Shown here in pieces: positions 13,441 through 61,738 of a stretch of 64,000 nt of DNA. The first letter of the stretch is position 1. Each line of letters starts with the position of its first letter. The notes beneath the pieces were generated by a model. It was not told the origin of the DNA and searched no databases. It saw nothing but the letters and a program-made list of their open reading frames with translations. The stretch comes from Minisyncoccota bacterium (GTDB lineage Bacteria > Patescibacteriota > Minisyncoccia > Phycocordibacterales > Phycocordibacteraceae): contig JBAYHD010000001.1 in the NCBI GenBank assembly GCA_041666305.1, forward strand, positions 18,149-82,148, written 5' to 3'. Position numbers and translations under genes: made by a program.

Positions 13441-14354
13441 GAACGAGAATAATCCGTGCGGGCGTAGCCTTGGTGCTTGCGCTTGCTGCAGGCGGTGTTG
13501 GATACACAGCTAGCAGTGGAGGAACGCAAGTCGCGAGTGTCAACGTTCCCGCACAGACAGTCTCGGCACCGGCCGCAAACTCCGTACGTGTCGTTTACAG
13601 TTTGGACCAAAAACAAAACGATAGAGAAATCATCGCGCTCATCGACGCGGCGAAGGACCATGTTTATTTCGCGATATACACCTTCACTCTTCCCTCTATT
13701 GCCGACGCGCTCGTCGCAGCGAAAAAACGCGGAGTGGATGTGCGCGGCATCGTCGATTCGGGGCAGAGCCGCGACAGCTACGGCAAACCGATTATCACGA
13801 AGCTCCTCGCCGCCGGCATCTCGGTCGTCACCGAGAAGCATGCGACCGGTAATGGCATCATGCATATCAAGACACTCGTCACCGAATCGGCGTATGCGAC
13901 CGGCAGTTATAACTGGACGAATTCTGCGACGACCATCAATGACGAAGTGCTCGAGATCGGCACCGATCCGGCACTCCGACAAGCGTATGAAAACATATTA
14001 AAGAAACTTTTGGACGCCTACGCAGGCAACACCGCGGCCGCTAACGCGGCCGCGCCTGTTTCCATCGGCACCATCGACTACACTGATGCCTCAGCGCACG
14101 TGGGCGACCTCGCATCCGTGCGCGGCACGCTCGTAAAAGCCTATACCTCGGCCTCCGGCACGGTCTTCCTCGACTTCTGCAAAAACTATAAGACCTGTCC
14201 CTTCTCGGGCGTCATCTTCGCCGACGATGCGAAGCAGTTCGACGACTTAGCAAAGCTCGCCGGCAAGACAATAACCCTCACCGGCAAGATCAGTTCGTAT
14301 CAAGGCAAGGCCGAAATCGTCCTCTCTGACCCGAGCCAACTTACTTCTCTTTAG
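13437..14354 (+). CDS. phospholipase D-like (HKD motif) domain protein, secreted/anchored
   Basis: 305 aa. N-terminal signal/anchor, HIKTLVTESAYATGSYNWTNSA (HxK(x)4D(x)6GSxN), then a C-terminal beta-rich domain ending ...KISSYQGKAEIVLSDPSQLTSL. Confidence 0.65.
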   Translation: MRTRIIRAGVALVLALAAGGVGYTASSGGTQVASVNVPAQTVSAPAANSVRVVYSLDQKQNDREIIALIDAAKDHVYFAIYTFTLPSIADALVAAKKRGVDVRGIVDSGQSRDSYGKPIITKLLAAGISVVTEKHATGNGIMHIKTLVTESAYATGSYNWTNSATTINDEVLEIGTDPALRQAYENILKKLLDAYAGNTAAANAAAPVSIGTIDYTDASAHVGDLASVRGTLVKAYTSASGTVFLDFCKNYKTCPFSGVIFADDAKQFDDLAKLAGKTITLTGKISSYQGKAEIVLSDPSQLTSL

Positions 14355-14814: not shown

Positions 14815-14888
14815 CTCACCGGCAAGATACCTCGTATCAAGGCAAGGCTGAAATCGTCCTCTCCGACCCAAGCCAGCTCTCGCATTGA
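14815..14888 (+). repeat. degenerate duplicate (~85% identity) of the PLD-like gene 3' end (14277..14354), including its own stop codon (SYQGKAEIVLSDPSQLSH*)
   Basis: Direct alignment of 14277-14354 against 14815-14888. Also preceded by a GCATGCACGC..GCGTGCAAGCATGC palindrome at 14773-14806. Confidence 0.8.
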
Positions 14889-25530: not shown

Positions 25531-25935
25531 TTACCAGATCTCGAAGAGGTCCTCGCCGCCGACCCTATTCTTACGCGCCTCGGCATCCGTGATGATGCCG
25601 AGCGATGACGAAAGAATGCGCGCGCCGGTGCCGCCCTTCACTTTGTGTGCGGCAGTGTGCGGCGCGTACAGCCGGCGGCCCGGCTTACTGATGCGCTTCA
25701 CGCCGCGAAGCTTCGCTTCTCCGCGCTCGTTGTAGGCGAGTTCTACGATAATATTTTTCTTCACACTTCCCTCTTCTTTTTCTTTCACTTCAACACGAGA
25801 AACAAAACCCAGCTCGCGAAGTTTCTTCGCGATAGTGAGCAGATGTTCCGAATACGGTAGAGAAACTTCTTTCTTGCCGATCATCGCGGCATTCTGCAAA
25901 CGAATTATGAAATCTCCGACGCGGTCAGTTACCAT
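25531..25935 (-). CDS. rpsH: 30S ribosomal protein S8
   Basis: [24 protein letters not shown]...GGEDLFEIW. Confidence 0.93.
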
Positions 25936-26198
25936 GACGCTTTCTTTACGCCCGGTATCTTCCCCTCGCGTGCGAGCTCGCGGAACTGGATGCGCGAAAG
26001 ACCGAAAGTGCGCATATAACCGCGAGAGCGACCGCTGATGGCACAGCGATTTTTCAGCCGAACAGGAGACGAATTCCTCGGAAGGGCTTGAAGGCCAGCA
26101 GAGTCACCGGCGGCTTTGAGGGCCGCGCGCTTGACTGCATATTTCGCTACGAGTTTCGTCTTTTTGACGAGTCGCGCGAGCTGGGATTTCTTTGCCAT
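25929..26198 (-). CDS. rpsN: 30S ribosomal protein S14 (long, non-zinc type)
   Basis: [32 protein letters not shown]...[42 protein letters not shown] 26198 preferred. Confidence 0.9.
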
Positions 26199-26322
26199 GT
26201 AAAAAATAAAGCCCCGAAGAGCGTGCAAGTAATGTATCACCTAGCTCCTACCCCGTCAAACCGACTGCTTTAGAAAACGGAAATCGCTCGGGTGGAGCAG
26301 TTTCCGCCGAGCGACTTGCTTT

Positions 26323-26637
26323 TTAGCCATCTAGGTTTGACATGCACGCAGCCCAGCTCGCCTGTCGCCGAGCAGGTTCGCCCAGTTCGAGAACTTCGCT
26401 ACCTATCGTGGTTTCGTATTCGTAGCCAGCGAGCTGTTCAAGTTCAAGGAGTGGGATGACCTCCTCGTTGATCGCCTTCAAGATCTCTGCAGGAATGGGC
26501 TTCCCTACTCCCTGAAAAATTACTGTCTCTTTCCCGCAACTGATCGTGCGATGCATTGTTACAGTCATGGTTTCAAGCTCAGTCGAGATGCCATTCTGTT
26601 TCAGAATGGCAAAGAACTTTCGATTGCTTCCCAACAT
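26323..26637 (-). CDS. hypothetical protein (first gene of the rpsN-rplE insertion)
   Basis: 104 aa. Good SD (aaggagga) 7 nt upstream of the ATG. No recognisable motif. Confidence 0.4.
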   Translation of the reverse strand: MLGSNRKFFAILKQNGISTELETMTVTMHRTISCGKETVIFQGVGKPIPAEILKAINEEVIPLLELEQLAGYEYETTIGSEVLELGEPARRQASWAACMSNLDG

Positions 26638-26735
26638 GATTTCCTCCTTTTCAGGAAAAATATTGATACCGATTCACCATTGAATCCGAACCCAACCAAT
26701 AGTAGACCGATAGGCGAAAAAAGTAAAATTACCAT

Positions 26736-26774
26736 TATCCCCATTTTGACCCGGTCGGGTCATTATTGGGATAC
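26736..26774. repeat. 39-bp imperfect-palindromic element, copy 1 (TATCCCCATTTTGACCCGGTCGGGTCATTATTGGGATAC); perfect 16-bp inner palindrome TGACCCGGTCGGGTCA
   Basis: 100% identical to 27379..27417. Flanks the wHTH/PaaX-like gene. Confidence 0.9.
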
Positions 26775-26795
26775 GTGGTTTAGTATGATTAAGCG

Positions 26796-27377
26796 ATGGG
26801 GACAGTTGAAGTGGGGGCAAAAATAAAAAGAAGAAAGAGAGATCTGCGGAGTGCAGCGCTCATCACCATCGGTTTGGCCGGGACTATCGCCGTCGCCGCC
26901 GTTGCACCAAACATGTTCCAGCTCCTCGGAAAGACCGGTCTACTTACCCGTCTTAAGTATCGCAGTAAGGGAGTACTCGCTCGATTGAAGTACAAAGGCG
27001 AGATCGAATTTGTAGAAAAGAACGGGAAGAAATATGTACGACTAACCGACAAGGGTGAAAAAATGTTGGATCTCAATCGCGAGAAATTAAATCTAACGAA
27101 CAAGAAACCGAAAAGGTGGGATCGCCGATACCGGCTGGTCATGTTCGATATACCGGAGAAACGGAACAACATCCGCAAGCTCTTACGTTTTGAGATGCGG
27201 GAGATCGGTTTCTTGCGTATACAGGACAGCGTCTGGGTCTACCCTTTTGATTGCGAAGAGTTCATCACACTCCTTAAGGCGGACTTGCGGGTTGGTAAGG
27301 ATATTCTCTACGCAGTTGTAGAAGAAATAGAAAACGACAAGTGGATCCGCAAACACTTTAATCTACCCCTTAAATAA
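26796..27377 (+). CDS. PaaX-like winged-helix regulator family protein with Cas2-like beta-alpha-beta-beta motif (paralog 1)
   Basis: 193 aa. N-terminal hydrophobic helix, wHTH-like KYKGEIEFVEKNGKKYVRLTDKGEKML, then RWDRRYRLVMFDIPEKRNNIRKLLRFEMREIGFLRIQDSVWVYPFDCE. This pattern matches PaaX (WDGxWxLVxF...R..LRxxLxxxGFgxLQxSVWV) and the Cas2 YDV...KRR...G.RVQNSVF signature. Convergent with the r-protein genes. Confidence 0.55.
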   Translation: MGTVEVGAKIKRRKRDLRSAALITIGLAGTIAVAAVAPNMFQLLGKTGLLTRLKYRSKGVLARLKYKGEIEFVEKNGKKYVRLTDKGEKMLDLNREKLNLTNKKPKRWDRRYRLVMFDIPEKRNNIRKLLRFEMREIGFLRIQDSVWVYPFDCEEFITLLKADLRVGKDILYAVVEEIENDKWIRKHFNLPLK

Positions 27378-27378
27378 C

Positions 27379-27417
27379 TATCCCCATTTTGACCCGGTCG
27401 GGTCATTATTGGGATAC
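27379..27417. repeat. 39-bp palindromic element, copy 2 (identical to 26736..26774); similarity continues ~15 bp beyond (GTGGTTT(A)GTAT)
   Basis: Direct comparison. Confidence 0.9.
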
Positions 27418-27442
27418 ATTAGTGGTTTGTATTAAAATAAAA

Positions 27443-31198: not shown

Positions 31199-31352
31199 AC
31201 GTACCGTTCCAAAACACCCGCATAAATCCTAATCCGTTCCAGAACCTTGACAATTTCCAAAATGTGCACGTATTTTGCATTTCGTCGCGTGTTTGTTTTT
31301 TCTGTGCAATGGAGTACCCTCTACCTCGGACCCATTTGAGGAGGAACCGCAG

Positions 31353-31565
31353 ATGAAAATGAAGTACAAATTGGTATATATGCAGCCCCTGCCGCTGGAA
31401 GACGGCCAGAAACAGCCCAAGTATGAACGGAAGCAGGAGATCTTTGAAGTTGAGCCTGAGGAAGCGGAGGAGAAAAAAAGAAAGTTTCTCGGGGAAGAGT
31501 CGGTGACGTTCGGCTTCGTTACGTTCAGCCGAGAACAAATTACCTTCATGCCCACGCTCGTGTAG
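31353..31565 (+). CDS. small acidic hypothetical protein inserted (convergently) between rpsS and rplB
   Basis: 70 aa, MKMKYKLVYMQPLPLEDGQKQPKYERKQEIFEVEPEEAEEKKRKF. Strong SD gaggagga 8 nt upstream. Own promoter-like TTGACA-N18-TATTTT at 31247-31276. Own terminator downstream. Confidence 0.5.
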   Translation: MKMKYKLVYMQPLPLEDGQKQPKYERKQEIFEVEPEEAEEKKRKFLGEESVTFGFVTFSREQITFMPTLV

Positions 31566-31587
31566 GCAACCCGCCCACCGATGAACG

Positions 31588-34367: not shown

Positions 34368-34592
34368 ATGGAAGATGGCCCGGAAAACAGAGCCCTCAGA
34401 AGCAAAAATGCGATTGATTTAGAAATTATGGGCTTGAGAATCAAGCTACAGCAACTCGAAACCAAAACCGCAATTGGGGGGTCTACTGAAATAAAAGCTT
34501 TGATTGAATCTGCAGGCAAAGACCAAGAGGTTCAAAGAATAGAAACGAAAATAGAGGAATTACGGCAGGAAAAGTCATCCTCAAAAGCGTAA
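34368..34592 (+). CDS. small coiled-coil hypothetical protein (rplC-rpsJ insertion)
   Basis: 74 aa, heptad-like LEIMGLRIKLQQLETK...IETKIEELRQEK. No SD, so weak call. Confidence 0.3.
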   Translation: MEDGPENRALRSKNAIDLEIMGLRIKLQQLETKTAIGGSTEIKALIESAGKDQEVQRIETKIEELRQEKSSSKA

Positions 34593-35032: not shown

Positions 35033-35072
35033 AAAAACACACAACCGCCTCTGCGGGCGGTTGTGTGTTTCT
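35033..35072 (-). terminator. intrinsic terminator, hairpin family ACACACAACCGCC-loop-GGCGGTTGTGTGT (minus strand followed by UUUUUGA); downstream of PaaX-like paralog 2
   Basis: Perfect 13-bp stem. A near-identical copy is at 36117..36156. Confidence 0.65.
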
Positions 35073-35088
35073 TGCTAATTACCATCGT

Positions 35089-35126
35089 GTTCGTTAATTC
35101 TAACGACCGTTGGAGATAACGAACAT
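35089..35126. repeat. 38-bp palindromic element GTTCGTTAATTCTAACGACCGTTGGAGATAACGAACAT (termini GTTCGTTA/TAACGAAC), copy A, 3'-flank of paralog 2
   Basis: Shares conserved termini and centre (28/38 identity) with copy B at 35745..35782. Confidence 0.75.
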
Positions 35127-35129
35127 TGG

Positions 35130-35744
35130 TTACTCTACTAGCGGGAGATTAAAATGCTTGCGGAGTTTTTCGTCGTGTTCTATCTCATCAGCGACTATAC
35201 AGAGAATACCGTGACCAAGTTTTAGATGCGTGCGCAAAAAGACAAGGAGTTTTTCACACGGATATGGATATGCCCATGCACTGTTCTGTACCTTAACGAA
35301 GCCGATTTCTCTGAGCGTCTCTCGTAATTCGTCACGCACTTCCCGTCGCCGCTCCCACACATCAAACATGATAATCCGCCACTTCTGATCCCATTTCTTC
35401 TGATTTTTAGGCCGCACTTCTTCGCGCTCTGCAAGTTCTTCGGCAATCTTCATCCCCTTCTCTGTTAGCTCTATATGAAAGCCGTTTTGCCCCTTCACTC
35501 GCCGAAATATACCCTGTTTAATCAGCTCAGAATATTTTTGACTCACGCGCCTCTTAAGACGAGGCGAAGGCCCAATGACTTTCTCTACATATTTGAGTAG
35601 TCTCACTGCGTTCGGCGCCATAACTATCAGACCTACTCCAATCGTGAGATACGCCGAGAGCAAAACAGCATTTTTAATTTTGGTGCGCTTTGTCCCGCGC
35701 TGAACCCTCTCCTCAATATTCAAGAGCCGTTTCTTTTTCTCCAT
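35130..35744 (-). CDS. PaaX-like wHTH regulator family protein with Cas2-like motif (paralog 2)
   Basis: 204 aa. GQNGFHIELTEKGMKIAEEL (wHTH wing), KKWDQKWRIIMFDVWERRREVRDELRETLREIGFVKVQNSAWAYPYPCE, C-terminal ...DEKLRKHFNLPL shared with paralog 1. Clearly homologous to 26796..27377. Confidence 0.55.
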   Translation of the reverse strand: MEKKKRLLNIEERVQRGTKRTKIKNAVLLSAYLTIGVGLIVMAPNAVRLLKYVEKVIGPSPRLKRRVSQKYSELIKQGIFRRVKGQNGFHIELTEKGMKIAEELAEREEVRPKNQKKWDQKWRIIMFDVWERRREVRDELRETLREIGFVKVQNSAWAYPYPCEKLLVFLRTHLKLGHGILCIVADEIEHDEKLRKHFNLPLVE

Positions 35745-35782
35745 GTTCGTTATTGTACACGGTCGTTGGACTTAACGAACAT
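35745..35782. repeat. 38-bp palindromic element copy B (GTTCGTTATTGTACACGGTCGTTGGACTTAACGAACAT), abutting the start codon of paralog 2
   Basis: Direct comparison with 35089..35126. Confidence 0.75.
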
Positions 35783-35890: not shown

Positions 35891-36082
35891 TCAGCTGCAT
35901 CCGTGCGGCGAAGGCCGACCAATCGGATGTTTCTCGATTTCATCACCCATTTCTGCCCAGTAACAATCGGCATGCACCGCAACCTTTTGACCTTCGACGA
36001 CAATGTACTCCAACTCCCCTTCAATATGTGGTCCGTCGATTAAATCATGACATATGCCGCAATAAACCGAACTTAGATCCAT
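35891..36082 (-). CDS. small Cys/His-rich (zinc-ribbon-like) hypothetical protein
   Basis: 63 aa from ATG 36082: MDLSSVYCGICHDLIDGPHIEGELEYIVVEGQKVAVHADCYWAEM. SD aaggaggg upstream. Confidence 0.45.
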   Translation of the reverse strand: MDLSSVYCGICHDLIDGPHIEGELEYIVVEGQKVAVHADCYWAEMGDEIEKHPIGRPSPHGCS

Positions 36083-36116
36083 GATTAAGCCCTCCTTTCT
36101 GCAGGCGAGTCTAGCA

Positions 36117-36156
36117 TAAAACACACAACCGCCCGTGAGGGCGGTTGTGTGTTTCT
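36117..36156 (-). terminator. second copy of the ACACACAACCGCCC-gtga-GGGCGGTTGTGTGT hairpin terminator, ~140 nt downstream of rpsJ
   Basis: Near-identical to 35033..35072, including flanking TTCTTG(G/C). Confidence 0.65.
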
Positions 36157-36299
36157 TGGCTGTCTTTGGAATTCTAGCGGTTTCAAAACTACTGTAGATG
36201 CTAGGCGCGACGAGAGAATTTCTGGAGACGTACTCAAATGTACGGCGGAAGAAGTTCTCGAAGTCGCAACAACGCAGATGCAGTAGTTTTGGAAGCGCG

Positions 36300-37966: not shown

Positions 37967-38009
37967 CCTGCCCCGTAGCCAAGCATTCCGATGCTTGTGG
38001 TACTGGGGT
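37967..38009. repeat. imperfect long hairpin element CCTGCCCCGTAGCCAAGCATTCCGATGCTTGTGGTACTGGGGT in the tuf 5' region; second copy (with a 72-bp internal insertion) at 61621..61738
   Basis: Direct sequence comparison. Contains AAGCAT-TCCG-ATGCTT inner hairpin. Confidence 0.6.
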
Positions 38010-38496: not shown

Positions 38497-38565
38497 GCAC
38501 AACAGCCGCCCTCCGGGCGGCTGTTGTGCCGAAAGTTAGGACACCCGGTGTCCTAACTTTTTACT
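38497..38565. terminator. two tandem perfect hairpins (gcacaacagccgccc-tcc-gggcggctgttgtgc; aagttaggacac-ccgg-gtgtcctaactt+tttt)
   Basis: Inverted repeats read directly. The second has a + strand T-tract. Confidence 0.45.
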
Positions 38566-38602
38566 TGCGAGATGCGATGATGTCGGCGGCAACGTTGTTC
38601 GG

Positions 38603-38750
38603 TGGTGTGCAACACCAGGTGTTGAACAAAATTATTTGCGGGATGCGATGATGTCGGCCGCGACGTTGGTGGGGACCACGTCGTAGTGATTGAACTCCAT
38701 CGTCATACTGCCGCGGCCTTCGGTCATGGAGCGAAGCGTGGTGGCGTAGA
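38603..38750 (-). repeat. degenerate duplicate (~80% identity) of the fusA 3' end plus its terminator hairpin (original 39200..39350); includes an in-frame remnant of the last ~39 codons and stop; an additional nested partial copy at 38567..38602
   Basis: Direct alignment: ...gtgtgcaacaccaggtgttgaacaaaattatttgcggg(a/a)(t/g)gcgatgatgtc... occurs at both loci. Confidence 0.8.
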
Positions 38751-38785
38751 AAGTCCGCTTTCTTGACGTGATATTATAAAGTTCA

Positions 38786-39145
38786 ATGAATATCCTCATC
38801 GCAGTTCTCGGACTGTTTGCAATCGATTACTATGGGTTGCGTTCATATTTGAGTCAGCGTGGCAAACCTACGGAAGGTTTAACAAAAAATATCTTACTAG
38901 CCTATAAAGACACCGCCGCCTGCGGGATTGCAGTTTTGCTTATCTCACTACCATTCTTCCTCGTTGATACTGGTGCCCCACGACCCTATGCCGAGCTGCT
39001 TTCGATGGCTCTTTGGGGTGCGGGATTCGTCCTACCTCTACCCTTCTTCATAAAAAAGAGAGTTAATATTCCTTGGTTGACTGCGATTGGTTTTATCTTT
39101 GGTCCATTGGTTTTTATTTTGCCTGCACTGTACGCAACCTTTTAA
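38786..39145 (+). CDS. small 3-4-TM membrane protein (hypothetical), convergent cargo between fusA and its duplicated 3' end
   Basis: 119 aa. [26 protein letters not shown]...[37 protein letters not shown]. Confidence 0.45.
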
Positions 39146-39229
39146 ACAACTGCAGCAAACTCAAACGGAAAGCGGCCGCCCTCTCGGGTGGCCGTTGTAC
39201 TGGTGTGCAACACCAGGTGTTGAACAAAA

Positions 39230-41377
39230 TTATTTGCGGGAGGCGATGATGTCCGCGGCCACATTAGTAGGAACTACATCGTAGTGGTCAAACTCCATCG
39301 TCATCGAGCCGCGGCCTTCGGTCATGGAGCGGAGAGTGGTGGTGTAGCCGAACATTTCGGAAAGCGGAACTTTCGCCTTCACGACTTTGTTGAGACCTCG
39401 TTCTTCCATTCCCTCGATTTGTCCGCGTTTGCCGGAGAGATTACCCGTGATGTCGCCCATGAATTGGTCCGGAATAATGACTTCCACTCGCATAATCGGC
39501 TCAAGGATGACGGCCTTTGCTTTGCTTGCCGCTTCTTGAAATGCCATGGATGCCGCGATTTTGAAAGCGATTTCTGAGGAGTCCACATCGTGGTATGAGC
39601 CGTCGTAAAGGTCGACTGAGATATCCACCATCGGGAAGCCGGCGAGGAAGCCTCGCGCCATGGCCTCGCGGAGACCTTTCTCGATTGGCGAGATGAATTC
39701 CTGAGGAATGACGCCGCCTTTGATGTTATTGATGAATTCGAAATGGTCTTCGCGCGTAATATTTTTCGCGACCTTCTTCTCCGAATCTACCGGTTCCATC
39801 TTCTTCATCTTGATCTTCACATGACCGTACTGGCCGCGGCCGCCGGTCTGCTTGATGTACTTCCCTTCCGCTTCCGAAGAACCCATAATCGTTTCGCGAT
39901 ATGCCACCTGCGGCTTTCCCACATCCGCAACGACGTTGAACTCGCGCTTCATGCGGTCCACGAGGATTTCGAGGTGCAATTCGCCCATGCCGGAAATAAT
40001 CGTTTCATTCGTCTCTTCGTCGGTCTTGATGCGGAACGTCGGGTCTTCGTCGGAAAGTTTGCGGAGCGCAATGCCCATTTTCTCCTGGTCGGCTTTGGTC
40101 TTGGGCTCGATGCGGAGCGACACCACCGGTTCAGGGAATTTAATTTCCTCGAGCACGATAGGATTTGCCTCATCACAGAGCGTGTGCGAAGTTTTCGTAT
40201 CTTTGAGACCCACTGCGGCCGCGATTTCTCCGGTAAACACCTGTGCGACTTCTTCGCGCTTGTCGGCTTGCAAGCGAACGATGCGGCCGACGCGTTCCTT
40301 GGAACCCGTCGTTGAGTTGTATACATACGAGCCGGCGGTGAGTGTGCCTGAATACACACGGAAGAAAGTCAGCGCGCCGACAAACGGATCGGTCTGGAGT
40401 TTGAATGCCATCGCGCAAAACGGTTCATCATCTGACGCATGACGCTCAACCGGTTCATTCGTCTTCGGGTTTATGCCGGTGACGGGCTTGAGGTCCAAGG
40501 GCGACGGGAGATAATCCACGACCGCATCAAGTACGAGCTGTGCGCCTTTATTCTTAAGGGCAGAACCGGTGTACACCGGGAACACTTCGTTCGCGATGAC
40601 CGCCTTGCGCAAAATCGCCTTCAACTCATCGATGTTCGGCTCTTTGCCTTCGAGATACGCACCCATCGCCGCATCGTCTTGCTCCACAATGCGCTCAATG
40701 AGTTCGGCGCGGTACTTCTTCGCGTCTTCAAGGAGATTCGCGGGAATCTCGCCCTCTACCACCTCTTCGCCCATGTTGCCGGTAAAGGTGTATGCCTTCA
40801 TCGTGAGCAGATCCACGCAACCTTCATGCTGTGCCTCTTCTCCGATAGGAATTTGCATGCGAATGGCCTTCGGCGAGAGCCGGTCCAAAATGCTTGCATA
40901 GGAACGCTCAAATGACGCTCCTATGCGATCCAATTTATTGATGAAGCAAACACGCGGCACCGCGGCTTCGTCGGCATAACGCCAGTTTGTTTCGGACTGC
41001 GGTTCCACGCCGGCCACGCCGTCAAAGACGACAACCGCACCGTCGAGCACGCGCATGGAGCGCTTCACTTCTGCCGTGAAGTCGATGTGTCCGGGGGTGT
41101 CGATGATATTGAAACGATATTTCTTGGAGATATCCTTCTTGTCTTTCTCAATCGTTTTTGTCCAGAAGCAGGTAATGGCGGCGGCGGTGATGGTGATGCC
41201 GCGCTCGCGCTCTTGTTCCATCCAGTCGGTGGTCGTTTCTCCTTCGTGCACTTCACCGATCTTGTGTTGGGAACCTGTATAGAAAAGGATGCGCTCGCTG
41301 ACAGTGGTCTTGCCGGCGTCAATGTGCGCAATGATGCCGAAGTTCCTGACCTTCTCGAGTGGATAGTCTCTGTTCAT
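39230..41377 (-). CDS. fusA: elongation factor G
   Basis: 715 aa. NFGIIAHIDAGKTTVSERILFYTG... Confidence 0.97.
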   Translation of the reverse strand: MNRDYPLEKVRNFGIIAHIDAGKTTVSERILFYTGSQHKIGEVHEGETTTDWMEQERERGITITAAAITCFWTKTIEKDKKDISKKYRFNIIDTPGHIDFTAEVKRSMRVLDGAVVVFDGVAGVEPQSETNWRYADEAAVPRVCFINKLDRIGASFERSYASILDRLSPKAIRMQIPIGEEAQHEGCVDLLTMKAYTFTGNMGEEVVEGEIPANLLEDAKKYRAELIERIVEQDDAAMGAYLEGKEPNIDELKAILRKAVIANEVFPVYTGSALKNKGAQLVLDAVVDYLPSPLDLKPVTGINPKTNEPVERHASDDEPFCAMAFKLQTDPFVGALTFFRVYSGTLTAGSYVYNSTTGSKERVGRIVRLQADKREEVAQVFTGEIAAAVGLKDTKTSHTLCDEANPIVLEEIKFPEPVVSLRIEPKTKADQEKMGIALRKLSDEDPTFRIKTDEETNETIISGMGELHLEILVDRMKREFNVVADVGKPQVAYRETIMGSSEAEGKYIKQTGGRGQYGHVKIKMKKMEPVDSEKKVAKNITREDHFEFINNIKGGVIPQEFISPIEKGLREAMARGFLAGFPMVDISVDLYDGSYHDVDSSEIAFKIAASMAFQEAASKAKAVILEPIMRVEVIIPDQFMGDITGNLSGKRGQIEGMEERGLNKVVKAKVPLSEMFGYTTTLRSMTEGRGSMTMEFDHYDVVPTNVAADIIASRK

Positions 41378-61620: not shown

Positions 61621-61738
61621 CCTGCCCCGTAAGCAAAGCTTTCTCTCTGCGCTCATTCGGGAATATTGAAGTCAGACTTCAATTTCTCCTCATTCGCTTG
61701 ATAGTAGCCAAGCATTCTGATGCTTGTGGTACCGGGGT
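61621..61738. repeat. second copy of the CCTGCCCCGTA...GTAGCCAAGCATTCTGATGCTTGTGGTACCGGGGT element (see 37967..38009) split by a 72-bp insert containing a TTGAAGTC-A-GACTTCAA palindrome
   Basis: Direct comparison. Confidence 0.55.

Follow-up and report, generated by a model that had tools for sequence, protein, structure and literature searches.

PaaX, the phenylacetyl-CoA-responsive repressor of the paa genes in E. coli and Pseudomonas (PDB 8a39, 3l09), joins an N-terminal winged helix to a central Cas2-like domain (PF20803) that constitutes its dimerisation module. In the lac (O1-O2), gal (OE-OI), and deo systems, repressors also use an auxiliary operator located within the regulated gene or past it. 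Relatives of Cas2 and VapD can be ribonucleases, and the islands found at tRNA 3' ends are integrated cassettes that duplicate the 3' end of their target gene. Patescibacteria, the candidate phyla radiation (CPR), harbor to our knowledge very few recognisable transcription factors, and we know of almost nothing that has been described about their gene regulation. PaaX is a repressor of its own promoter, Px, and its operator in E. coli reads TGATTC(N27)GAATCA (PMC9493321). The present analysis concerns a PaaX-related gene, termed gene A (26796..27377, plus strand; 193 amino acids, aa), and the two palindromes that bracket it in a stretch of 64,000 nucleotides of contig JBAYHD010000001.1 from a Minisyncoccota bacterium; this whole stretch is referred to as the window, and homologous loci elsewhere carry L numbers. 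The gene A product is a truncated two-domain relative of PaaX ('mini-PaaX') and represents neither a PaaX orthologue nor a Cas2 protein. Comparison of homologous loci makes it reasonably probable that gene A encodes an autoregulated mini-PaaX dimer equipped with two predicted cognate operators. An autoregulated palindrome-binding repressor of the PaaX type is a regulator of an already known kind; what appears to be new is the operator-gene-operator layout of a truncated PaaX relative, featuring private specificities, an invariant C-N4-G, and leaderless-looking promoters.

Gene A lies between rplE (L5; 27443..27991, minus strand; PF00281 and PF00673; a 182-aa gene call) and rpsN (S14; 25929..26198, minus strand; PF00253, 1.7e-28); in operon order, these two flank the insert on the left and on the right, respectively. 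A preliminary description of this DNA had reported that the two ribosomal genes are 1.24 kb apart, that two identical 39-bp repeats bound the 193-aa gene, and that a 104-aa gene with a Shine-Dalgarno sequence is located on the minus strand (26323..26637). All of this is borne out: the gap between the flanks, both identified by Pfam, measures 1244 bp, the repeats occupy 26736..26774 and 27379..27417, and AAGGAGG precedes the 104-aa open reading frame (ORF). The same description was mistaken in calling the 104-aa and 193-aa genes convergent, since they are divergent (head to head) and it is rplE with which gene A converges. The 39-mer TATCCCCATTTTGACCCGGTCGGGTCATTATTGGGATAC is 100% identical at its two positions; 21 nt separate the upstream copy from the ATG of gene A, and the downstream copy starts 1 nt after the stop codon. 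Its 16-bp core TGACCCGGTCGGGTCA, originally taken to be a perfect palindrome, is self-complementary at 14/16 positions (two mismatches to the reverse strand), and the dyad considered over 40 nt reaches 15/20.

The Pfam model PF20803 (PaaX_M, 'PaaX protein central Cas2-like domain') matches residues 106-175 of the gene A protein with 57.0 bits against a cut-off of 24 (E 2.2e-15), which upholds the earlier assignment to PaaX-like winged helix-turn-helix (wHTH) proteins. As the match ends at residue 175 of 193, only about 18 residues are left, and PaaX_C, the C-terminal helical, ligand-responsive domain of PaaX, has no match in the protein. In contrast to PaaX, the protein also stays far below the cut-off of TIGR02277, the NCBIfam PaaX equivalog, which aligns to residues 60-161 with 32.2 bits (cut-off 264.55). 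The resemblance to Cas2 that had likewise been pointed out holds locally, residues 111-160 being similar to the beta1-alpha1 start of Cas2 (model positions 1-47) with an invariant aspartate ending beta1, and Cas2 and VapD are among the closest known systems; it does not hold for the protein as a whole, since every curated Cas2 cut-off is missed (PF09827, 18.2 versus 23.8; TIGR01573, 22.3 versus 24.5) and only about the first 40 positions of the Cas2 model align. Unlike Cas2 genes, gene A is accompanied neither by cas genes nor by cas Pfam domains within +/-10 kb, and the 64-kb window contains no CRISPR array; moreover, the 'repeats' around gene A enclose a 604-bp protein gene and not, as in CRISPR, a spacer. 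PADLOC returned partial Cas2 matches only, together with one weak LmuC match for a second family member in the window (gene B, see below), and a sequence-profile search of the PDB yielded nothing useful.

A structure prediction had been proposed as a check. In the AlphaFold2 (AF2) model, a long N-terminal helix leads into a winged helix, and a linker helix connects to a beta-alpha-beta-beta-alpha unit followed by terminal helices. In a Foldseek search of the PDB, PadR-like winged-helix regulators rank first and E. coli PaaX (8a39) appears at rank 7, aligned over 159 columns; the PaaX-like protein from Jannaschia (3l09) is also among the matches (about 150 columns). Residues 19-37, a stretch of 19 residues with a mean Kyte-Doolittle hydropathy of 2.06, could be the opening helix of the winged-helix domain or else anchor the protein in a membrane; this extra hydrophobic N-terminal helix distinguishes gene A from PaaX. 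The genomic surroundings differ as well, since no paa genes occur near gene A and its neighbours are ribosomal-protein genes and, elsewhere in the family, other housekeeping genes.

The geometry of its palindromes also links gene A to PaaX. Each consists of 6-bp inverted half-sites, TATCCC-N26-GGGATA, followed by a 3' C, and thus matches the operator of E. coli PaaX, where half-sites of the same length are spaced by about 27 bp within 39 bp overall; the gene A site is regarded as a predicted operator. Only two copies of TATCCCCATTTTGACCCGGTCGGGTCATTATTGGGATAC exist in the 64-kb window at three or fewer mismatches (0 expected from shuffles), no third copy emerges in the 64 kb at a loose threshold of 25/40 matches, and the pair is the sole perfectly identical long direct repeat of the window. 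When metagenomes were scanned with a degenerate A-operator pattern, six loci were obtained, four of which adjoin a homolog of gene A while the other two lie at contig ends and cannot be judged. The possibility, raised in the preliminary description, that the 39-mer is a common genome-wide repetitive extragenic palindromic (REP)-like element is not borne out by these copy numbers and contexts, and this candidate was rejected. An intrinsic terminator was rejected as well, because no T-run follows the palindrome stem on either strand.

The arrangement is a property of the family rather than of this locus. An exhaustive HMMER scan at E<=1e-10 yields 1520 clusters at 50% identity, nearly all of them with proteins of about 190 aa, and the close homologs of gene A (63-92% identity) number in the hundreds and stem from Patescibacteria metagenomes. 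Across sources the members are named 'Cas2' or 'PaaX', databases often listing them as 'CRISPR-associated endonuclease Cas2', and no description of a mini-PaaX family in CPR was found in the searchable literature. In three loci with three different contexts, namely L002 (rpsN/rplE), L004 (a transporter and a tRNA synthetase), and L006 (an aminotransferase and an unknown gene), two copies of a palindrome of 36-39 bp flank the gene at equivalent positions; the sequence of the palindrome differs between the loci and matches within each. Pairs of this kind were then scored in 28 loci from the genome collection, the taxon names of which include Kaiserbacteria, Paceibacterota, Wolfebacteria, Vogelbacteria, Falkowbacteria, Wildermuthbacteria, Nomurabacteria, and Adlerbacteria. 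Because a search for the best hairpin alone picked neighbouring terminators, a joint score was employed that adds the similarity between upstream and downstream site to the dyad symmetry of each. This score recovers the palindrome pair in almost all of the 28 loci, and likewise in metagenome loci; 22 of 26 scored loci beat all 147 control placements, in which a pseudo-gene was positioned in the same loci, and several of the remaining ones have a pair according to direct-repeat detection. Altogether, in some 29 of 30 homologous loci, which belong to several Patescibacteria lineages and lie in varied contexts, the gene has its own cognate palindrome of 38-40 bp, once upstream and once just past the stop codon.

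Given this family-wide layout of matched palindromes, the perfect identity seen in the window represents the extreme of a family constraint and not the trace of a recent duplication. Among the explanations put forward in the preliminary description, the comparative data therefore favour strong constraint on operator sites of the encoded wHTH protein, whereas recent duplication or recombination finds no support in a family whose palindromes have diverged between loci and still match within them. The 100% identity in the window would be expected if it were a functionless accident of recent local duplication; the diverged but matched pairs, together with scores far above those of control placements, reduce the probability of such an accident to next to nothing, and it can be considered refuted. 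The specificities appear to be private even within one genome, since the paralogs L015 and L018, which share a contig, have different half-sites. The upstream operator of L015 (2936-2975) is a hybrid, its left half reading TATCCCC, a type used by other paralogs, and its right half GTGCTG as in its own type, while its downstream site is perfectly palindromic and of the GTGCTG type; paralogs may thus regulate one another, as this hybrid suggests.

An ungapped alignment of 55 operator sites, compared with 500 shuffles, provides an account of how the symmetry is maintained. Complementary cells amount to 78.8%. Shuffles give 55.9%, none of the 500 attaining the observed percentage, and sliding the partner column gives 36-43%. 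Double-sided changes are found in 309 cells where 131 are expected, so that dyad symmetry is upheld by compensatory changes on both sides. Most of it resides at positions 2-6, the outer block (TATCC in the A group), and at positions 17-19, the inner block, where symmetry is about 95-100%, and it falls to only 36-62% at positions 11-15. As judged from the alignment, such two-block symmetry is what a duplex contacted by protein at separate blocks would show, and it does not fit a stem of RNA or DNA. The residues C18 and G23, which make up a C-N4-G at the dyad, are invariant in 55/55 sites, the centre occurring as CTATAG, CGGTCG, CGGCCG, or CGATCG, while the outer half-sites are wholly different between subfamilies. 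At a coarse level, the outer half-site and the region of the recognition helix co-vary.

These observations also bear on an alternative according to which the palindromes act as RNA hairpins on the gene A transcript, either as 5' and 3' stabilisers or as processing sites for the Cas2/VapD-like domain functioning as a ribonuclease, an activity with precedent among the relatives of Cas2 and VapD. Both copies do fold (-19.9 and -25.5 kcal/mol, z -2.6 and -3.8), the A-type copies are direct and carry conserved T-T mismatches on the sense strand, and all 22 aligned sequences share an aspartate, D118, where the catalytic residue of Cas2 lies, at the end of beta1. However, pairing that drops to 36-62% between two separate and nearly fully paired blocks is unlike a stem, and G-U pairs are not in excess, since G-T mismatches (55) are about as frequent as A-C mismatches (46) in the 55 sites. 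The B-type pairs introduced below are inverted relative to each other, no Rfam family matches (the whole window gave nothing from Rfam at gathering thresholds, nor from ARAGORN), and a conserved -10 box situated 6-8 nt from the ATG puts the upstream copy outside the mRNA. A role as RNA hairpins is consequently very unlikely.

The evidence for this promoter is that 18 of 21 loci have a -10-like hexamer (TATGAT, TATAAT, TACAAT, TATATT, or TAGGAT) whose end lies 6-8 nt ahead of the ATG, compared with 15% at random positions; hexamers matching at five or more of six positions are present in 12/21 loci and in 2% of controls. In gene A, the hexamer is TATGAT (26784..26789, plus strand), which ends 6 nt before the ATG, and no -35 hexamer was found at the gene A promoter. 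The gene A mRNA is therefore probably leaderless or near-leaderless, and with the -10 box lying between the upstream palindrome and the ATG, this palindrome would not be transcribed from gene A's own promoter. With the A of the ATG as +1, the upstream operator extends from -60 to -22 with its centre at -41.5, a placement that would suit occlusion of the -35 region and equally class-II-type activation, so that the sign of regulation could go either way. A second geometry class, which includes gene B, has the palindrome centred 18 bp before the ATG, and its right arm itself holds an extended -10 (TGTACAAT in the window). The downstream site begins 0-9 nt after the stop codon in most loci and is not followed by a conserved -10 or a promoter at fixed spacing across loci; as RNA, the downstream palindrome of gene A forms a hairpin of -19.9 kcal/mol without a U-tract.

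Taken in order, the autoregulation of gene A would proceed as follows. The two palindromes of 38/39 bp would be its cognate PaaX-type operators, with half-sites TATCCC and GGGATA 26 bp apart around the central C-N4-G. A dimer bound to the upstream operator would control gene A's own promoter, and here repression is assumed by analogy with PaaX at Px, class-II-type activation fitting the centring at -41.5 as well. We infer that the same protein also binds the downstream operator just past the stop codon, where it would most likely loop the gene of about 640 bp together with the upstream site or, alternatively, serve as a roadblock to polymerases on their way into or out of the cassette, insulating it from convergent transcription of the operon. 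As in the lac, gal, and deo systems, two predicted operators of the same kind lie a few hundred bp apart, one of them over the promoter, which is compatible with looping. In contrast to these systems, the second operator of mini-PaaX genes is placed just past the stop codon of the regulator itself, this position is fixed family-wide, and no separate target operon is known. A second predicted operator directly after the stop codon likewise sets gene A apart from PaaX, as does the existence of mini-PaaX as several paralogs, each with private predicted operators.

Several points weigh against an autoregulated dimer with two operators. Palindromicity was among the criteria by which the alignment windows for the symmetry analysis were selected, so the paired percentage of 78.8% is inflated. 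The A-type pairs are direct repeats that keep a shared asymmetry, and simple symmetric binding does not need one. The Pfam PaaX N-terminal domain has no match in the gene A protein at E<=1, a further difference from PaaX, and the confidence of the AF2 model is moderate (pLDDT 71.6). The possible membrane anchor would be unusual for a repressor, and the invariance of D118 hints at a function beyond dimerisation. Finally, the metagenome scan for the A-operator did not return the window's own contig and is for this reason no full genome test, so that other sites, and with them a regulon elsewhere, may exist in this genome.

The history of the insert was reconstructed from relatives. The exact RpsN sequence of the window recurs in four contigs (L045-L048); in these, 36 bp separate rplE from rpsN, and the empty junction contains no solo palindrome. 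Three of these (L045-L047) are the closest relatives by flank identity (90% at the nucleotide level in rplE and rpsN) and yet empty, whereas the insert-bearing relatives, which together with the window comprise L002, L009, L011, L037, L039, L040, L041, and L044, have flanks of 75-87% nucleotide identity. The comparison with an empty site suggested in the preliminary description thus reveals an insert that is syntenic in many relatives but variable. In a short RplE tree, the empty contigs branch next to the window, as its sister group, within the insert-bearing clade; the neighbour-joining trees of RplE and of protein A are too short to choose between one gain followed by losses and repeated gains. 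Since the closest relatives are empty and more distant ones filled, the insert is, on this comparison, old and polymorphic in the clade and would since have been lost, replaced, or regained. Gene A itself shares 70-82% nucleotide identity with its relatives, in the range of rplE (76-84%) and rpsN (75-87%), and the identical 38-mer is also present in L037 and L039, whose rpsN is 81-86% identical.

Tolerance of the insertion can be traced to a promoter that predates it. Empty-site contigs bear a promoter-like TTGACG-17-TGATAATAT within the last codons and the stop of rplE (L045 3440-3500, L048 230-290), and in 8/8 insert-bearing loci TTGACG-17-TGATACATT, or a sequence close to it, persists some 35 nt ahead of rpsN. 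The corresponding promoter-like site of the window, TTGACG-17-(TG)ATACATT (26231..26259, minus strand), descends from this internal promoter in the rplE 3' end. With a promoter already in the rplE 3' end, the boundary between rplE and rpsN constituted a transcriptional break before insertion, which explains why an antisense cassette is tolerated there and why a junction described as 'almost invariant' accepts insertions in this clade. The spc operon of the clade seems to be split at rplE|rpsN whether or not an insert is present.

The same locus raises the question of whether gene A belongs to a small mobile cassette, with the palindromes as its ends or its recombination sites and the wHTH-Cas2-like protein helping to move it. 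The presence/absence polymorphism, with L045-L048 empty and more distant relatives (75-87% nucleotide identity) filled, would be accounted for in this way, as would the occurrence of members at about 70% identity in unrelated contexts and of a 39%-identical family member directly after rplE in a Vogelbacteria metagenome-assembled genome (MAG). The insert also has a lower GC content than its flanks (0.40-0.50 versus 0.55-0.60), and since each site is palindromic the two copies double as terminal inverted repeats. In L011 and L041, moreover, the cassette is flanked by a direct duplicate of about 60 bp of the rplE 3' end, the displaced copy still encoding AEAFFRH(I/L)G(M/L)PLIVETKK*; a remnant of this kind inside the window's insert is not significant (best shuffle p=0.035). 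The duplication and the existence of empty sites recall the islands at tRNA 3' ends. In contrast to these islands, no integrase is present, and what is duplicated is the rplE 3' end and not the palindromes. This signature also surrounds an unrelated ORF at fusA: in the window (38561-39347), the 3' end of fusA is duplicated directly over 147 nt at 87% identity (38603-38749 and 39201-39347), with a third partial copy, and flanks a 598-bp insert that contains a 119-aa hydrophobic ORF (38786-39145, plus strand) and lacks both a PaaX-like gene and a palindrome. Duplication of a target gene's 3' end at this unrelated insert indicates that the insertion process is not tied to the palindromes.

Further observations argue against mobility by way of the palindromes. 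The empty site retains no solo palindrome, no transposase or integrase is encoded within +/-10 kb of gene A, and the insert holds only the PaaX_M protein and ORFans. No relatives turned up in phage records or viral contigs, and in the plasmid collection tblastn found no more than two matches, both weak and partial (23-25% identity, E ~5e-4), which belong to the actinomycetes Nonomuraea and Streptomyces. Neither the A nor the B cassette has a second copy in the 64 kb, the A and B orthologs hold their operon positions across many genomes and are conserved like ribosomal genes, and the internal symmetry of each palindrome, kept by compensatory change, is not explained by target-site duplication. 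Past movement of the cassette as a unit is compatible with the data; the earlier proposal of palindromes as recombination sites for its excision is not supported, and a mobile cassette of this kind is clearly improbable.

The window harbors a second family member in another ribosomal operon. Gene B (35130..35744, minus strand), a 204-aa paralog sharing 36% identity with gene A and matching PF20803 with 67.1 bits, is situated between rpsJ and rplC. Its layout is that of gene A, with an unrelated palindrome, TGTTCGTTA...TAACGAACA, the upstream copy of which (35743..35782) has TGTACAAT in its right arm 7 nt before the ATG. The downstream copy (35087..35126) lies directly after the stop codon and is followed by a separate canonical terminator hairpin of 41 nt (35034..35074; -28.8 kcal/mol, z -6.6, then U5). 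Because this strong intrinsic terminator is distinct from the palindrome, a terminator function of the downstream palindrome was rejected. The terminator-like hairpin has a second direct copy at 36118-36158 (93% identical), and the two 41-nt copies bound a 1.08-kb segment composed of the gene B cassette and a 77-aa Cys/His-rich ORF (35891-36124, minus strand). Orthologs of gene B (68-75% identity) occur between rpsJ and rplC on the operon strand in five further contigs, L051, L052, and L054-L056 (a single identical protein in L054-L056); they keep B-type palindromes and have variable small ORFs alongside.

That two paralogs of one window reside inside two ribosomal operons could mean that the cassettes act as valves, the operator-bound protein gating RNA polymerase in spc (gene A) and in S10 (gene B) and thereby coupling ribosomal-protein supply to the level of the regulator. 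Orthologs of gene A at rplE|rpsN in at least nine contigs, those of gene B at rpsJ|rplC in five more, and the distant member beside rplE in the Vogelbacteria MAG are in line with this idea, as is the failure to detect classical ribosomal-protein leader RNAs in the window. In contrast, family members at 63-75% identity occur outside ribosomal operons, close relatives do well without the A cassette at rplE|rpsN, and rpsN, served by a promoter of its own whether or not the insert is there, does not depend on read-through across gene A. Gating of ribosomal operons is thus an unlikely function. A broader proposal, in which mini-PaaX genes are Patescibacteria-wide self-bracketed modules with private operators, the copies in S10 and spc are roadblocks or loops tuning ribosomal-protein transcription, and the Cas2-like core reads the C-N4-G, can be offered as speculation, with a somewhat better but still low probability.

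Irrespective of their function, two mini-PaaX members are conserved residents of ribosomal-protein operons (S10 and spc) in one clade. Autoregulation through two flanking sites would provide a family of about 1,500 clusters, often mislabelled 'Cas2' or 'PaaX', with a concrete and testable DNA target, as each mini-PaaX member can be paired with its own predicted operator by reading the flanks of its gene. The second predicted operator just past the stop codon remains the unusual feature of the family as a whole.

The part of the insert next to the upstream operator is a variable accessory region. The 104-aa ORFan has no match in Pfam, NCBIfam, or PADLOC and four homologs only, among them a 109-aa ORF at the equivalent place in L044. 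Its slot is taken by a 133-aa ORF in L002 and by a 284-aa ORF in L037, where a repeat protein (387-1241) fills the space between palindrome and rpsN in a locus that carries the identical 38-mer. The slot adjoining the upstream operator thus appears, in these comparisons, as a hotspot for variable genes.

As a separate observation, outer half-sites of several A-type operators read TTATCCACA (L013 2941-2976, L017 1332-1369, L004 3942-3979, L014 115-152), which we take to be the classical DnaA-box 9-mer, and the window's operator copy TTATCCCCA matches the DnaA box at 8/9 positions; this likeness may be a coincidence or reflect an interplay with DnaA. The operons of this genome carry several small inserts. 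Small plus-strand ORFs of 70 aa and 74 aa, at 31350-31570 (between rpsS and rplB) and 34368-34592, break the string of minus-strand ribosomal-protein genes. Two further pairs of direct repeats were noted in the window, one of 47 nt with 91% identity (14295-14341 and 14832-14878, 537 bp apart) and one of 35 nt with 94% identity (37975-38009 and 61704-61738, 23.7 kb apart).

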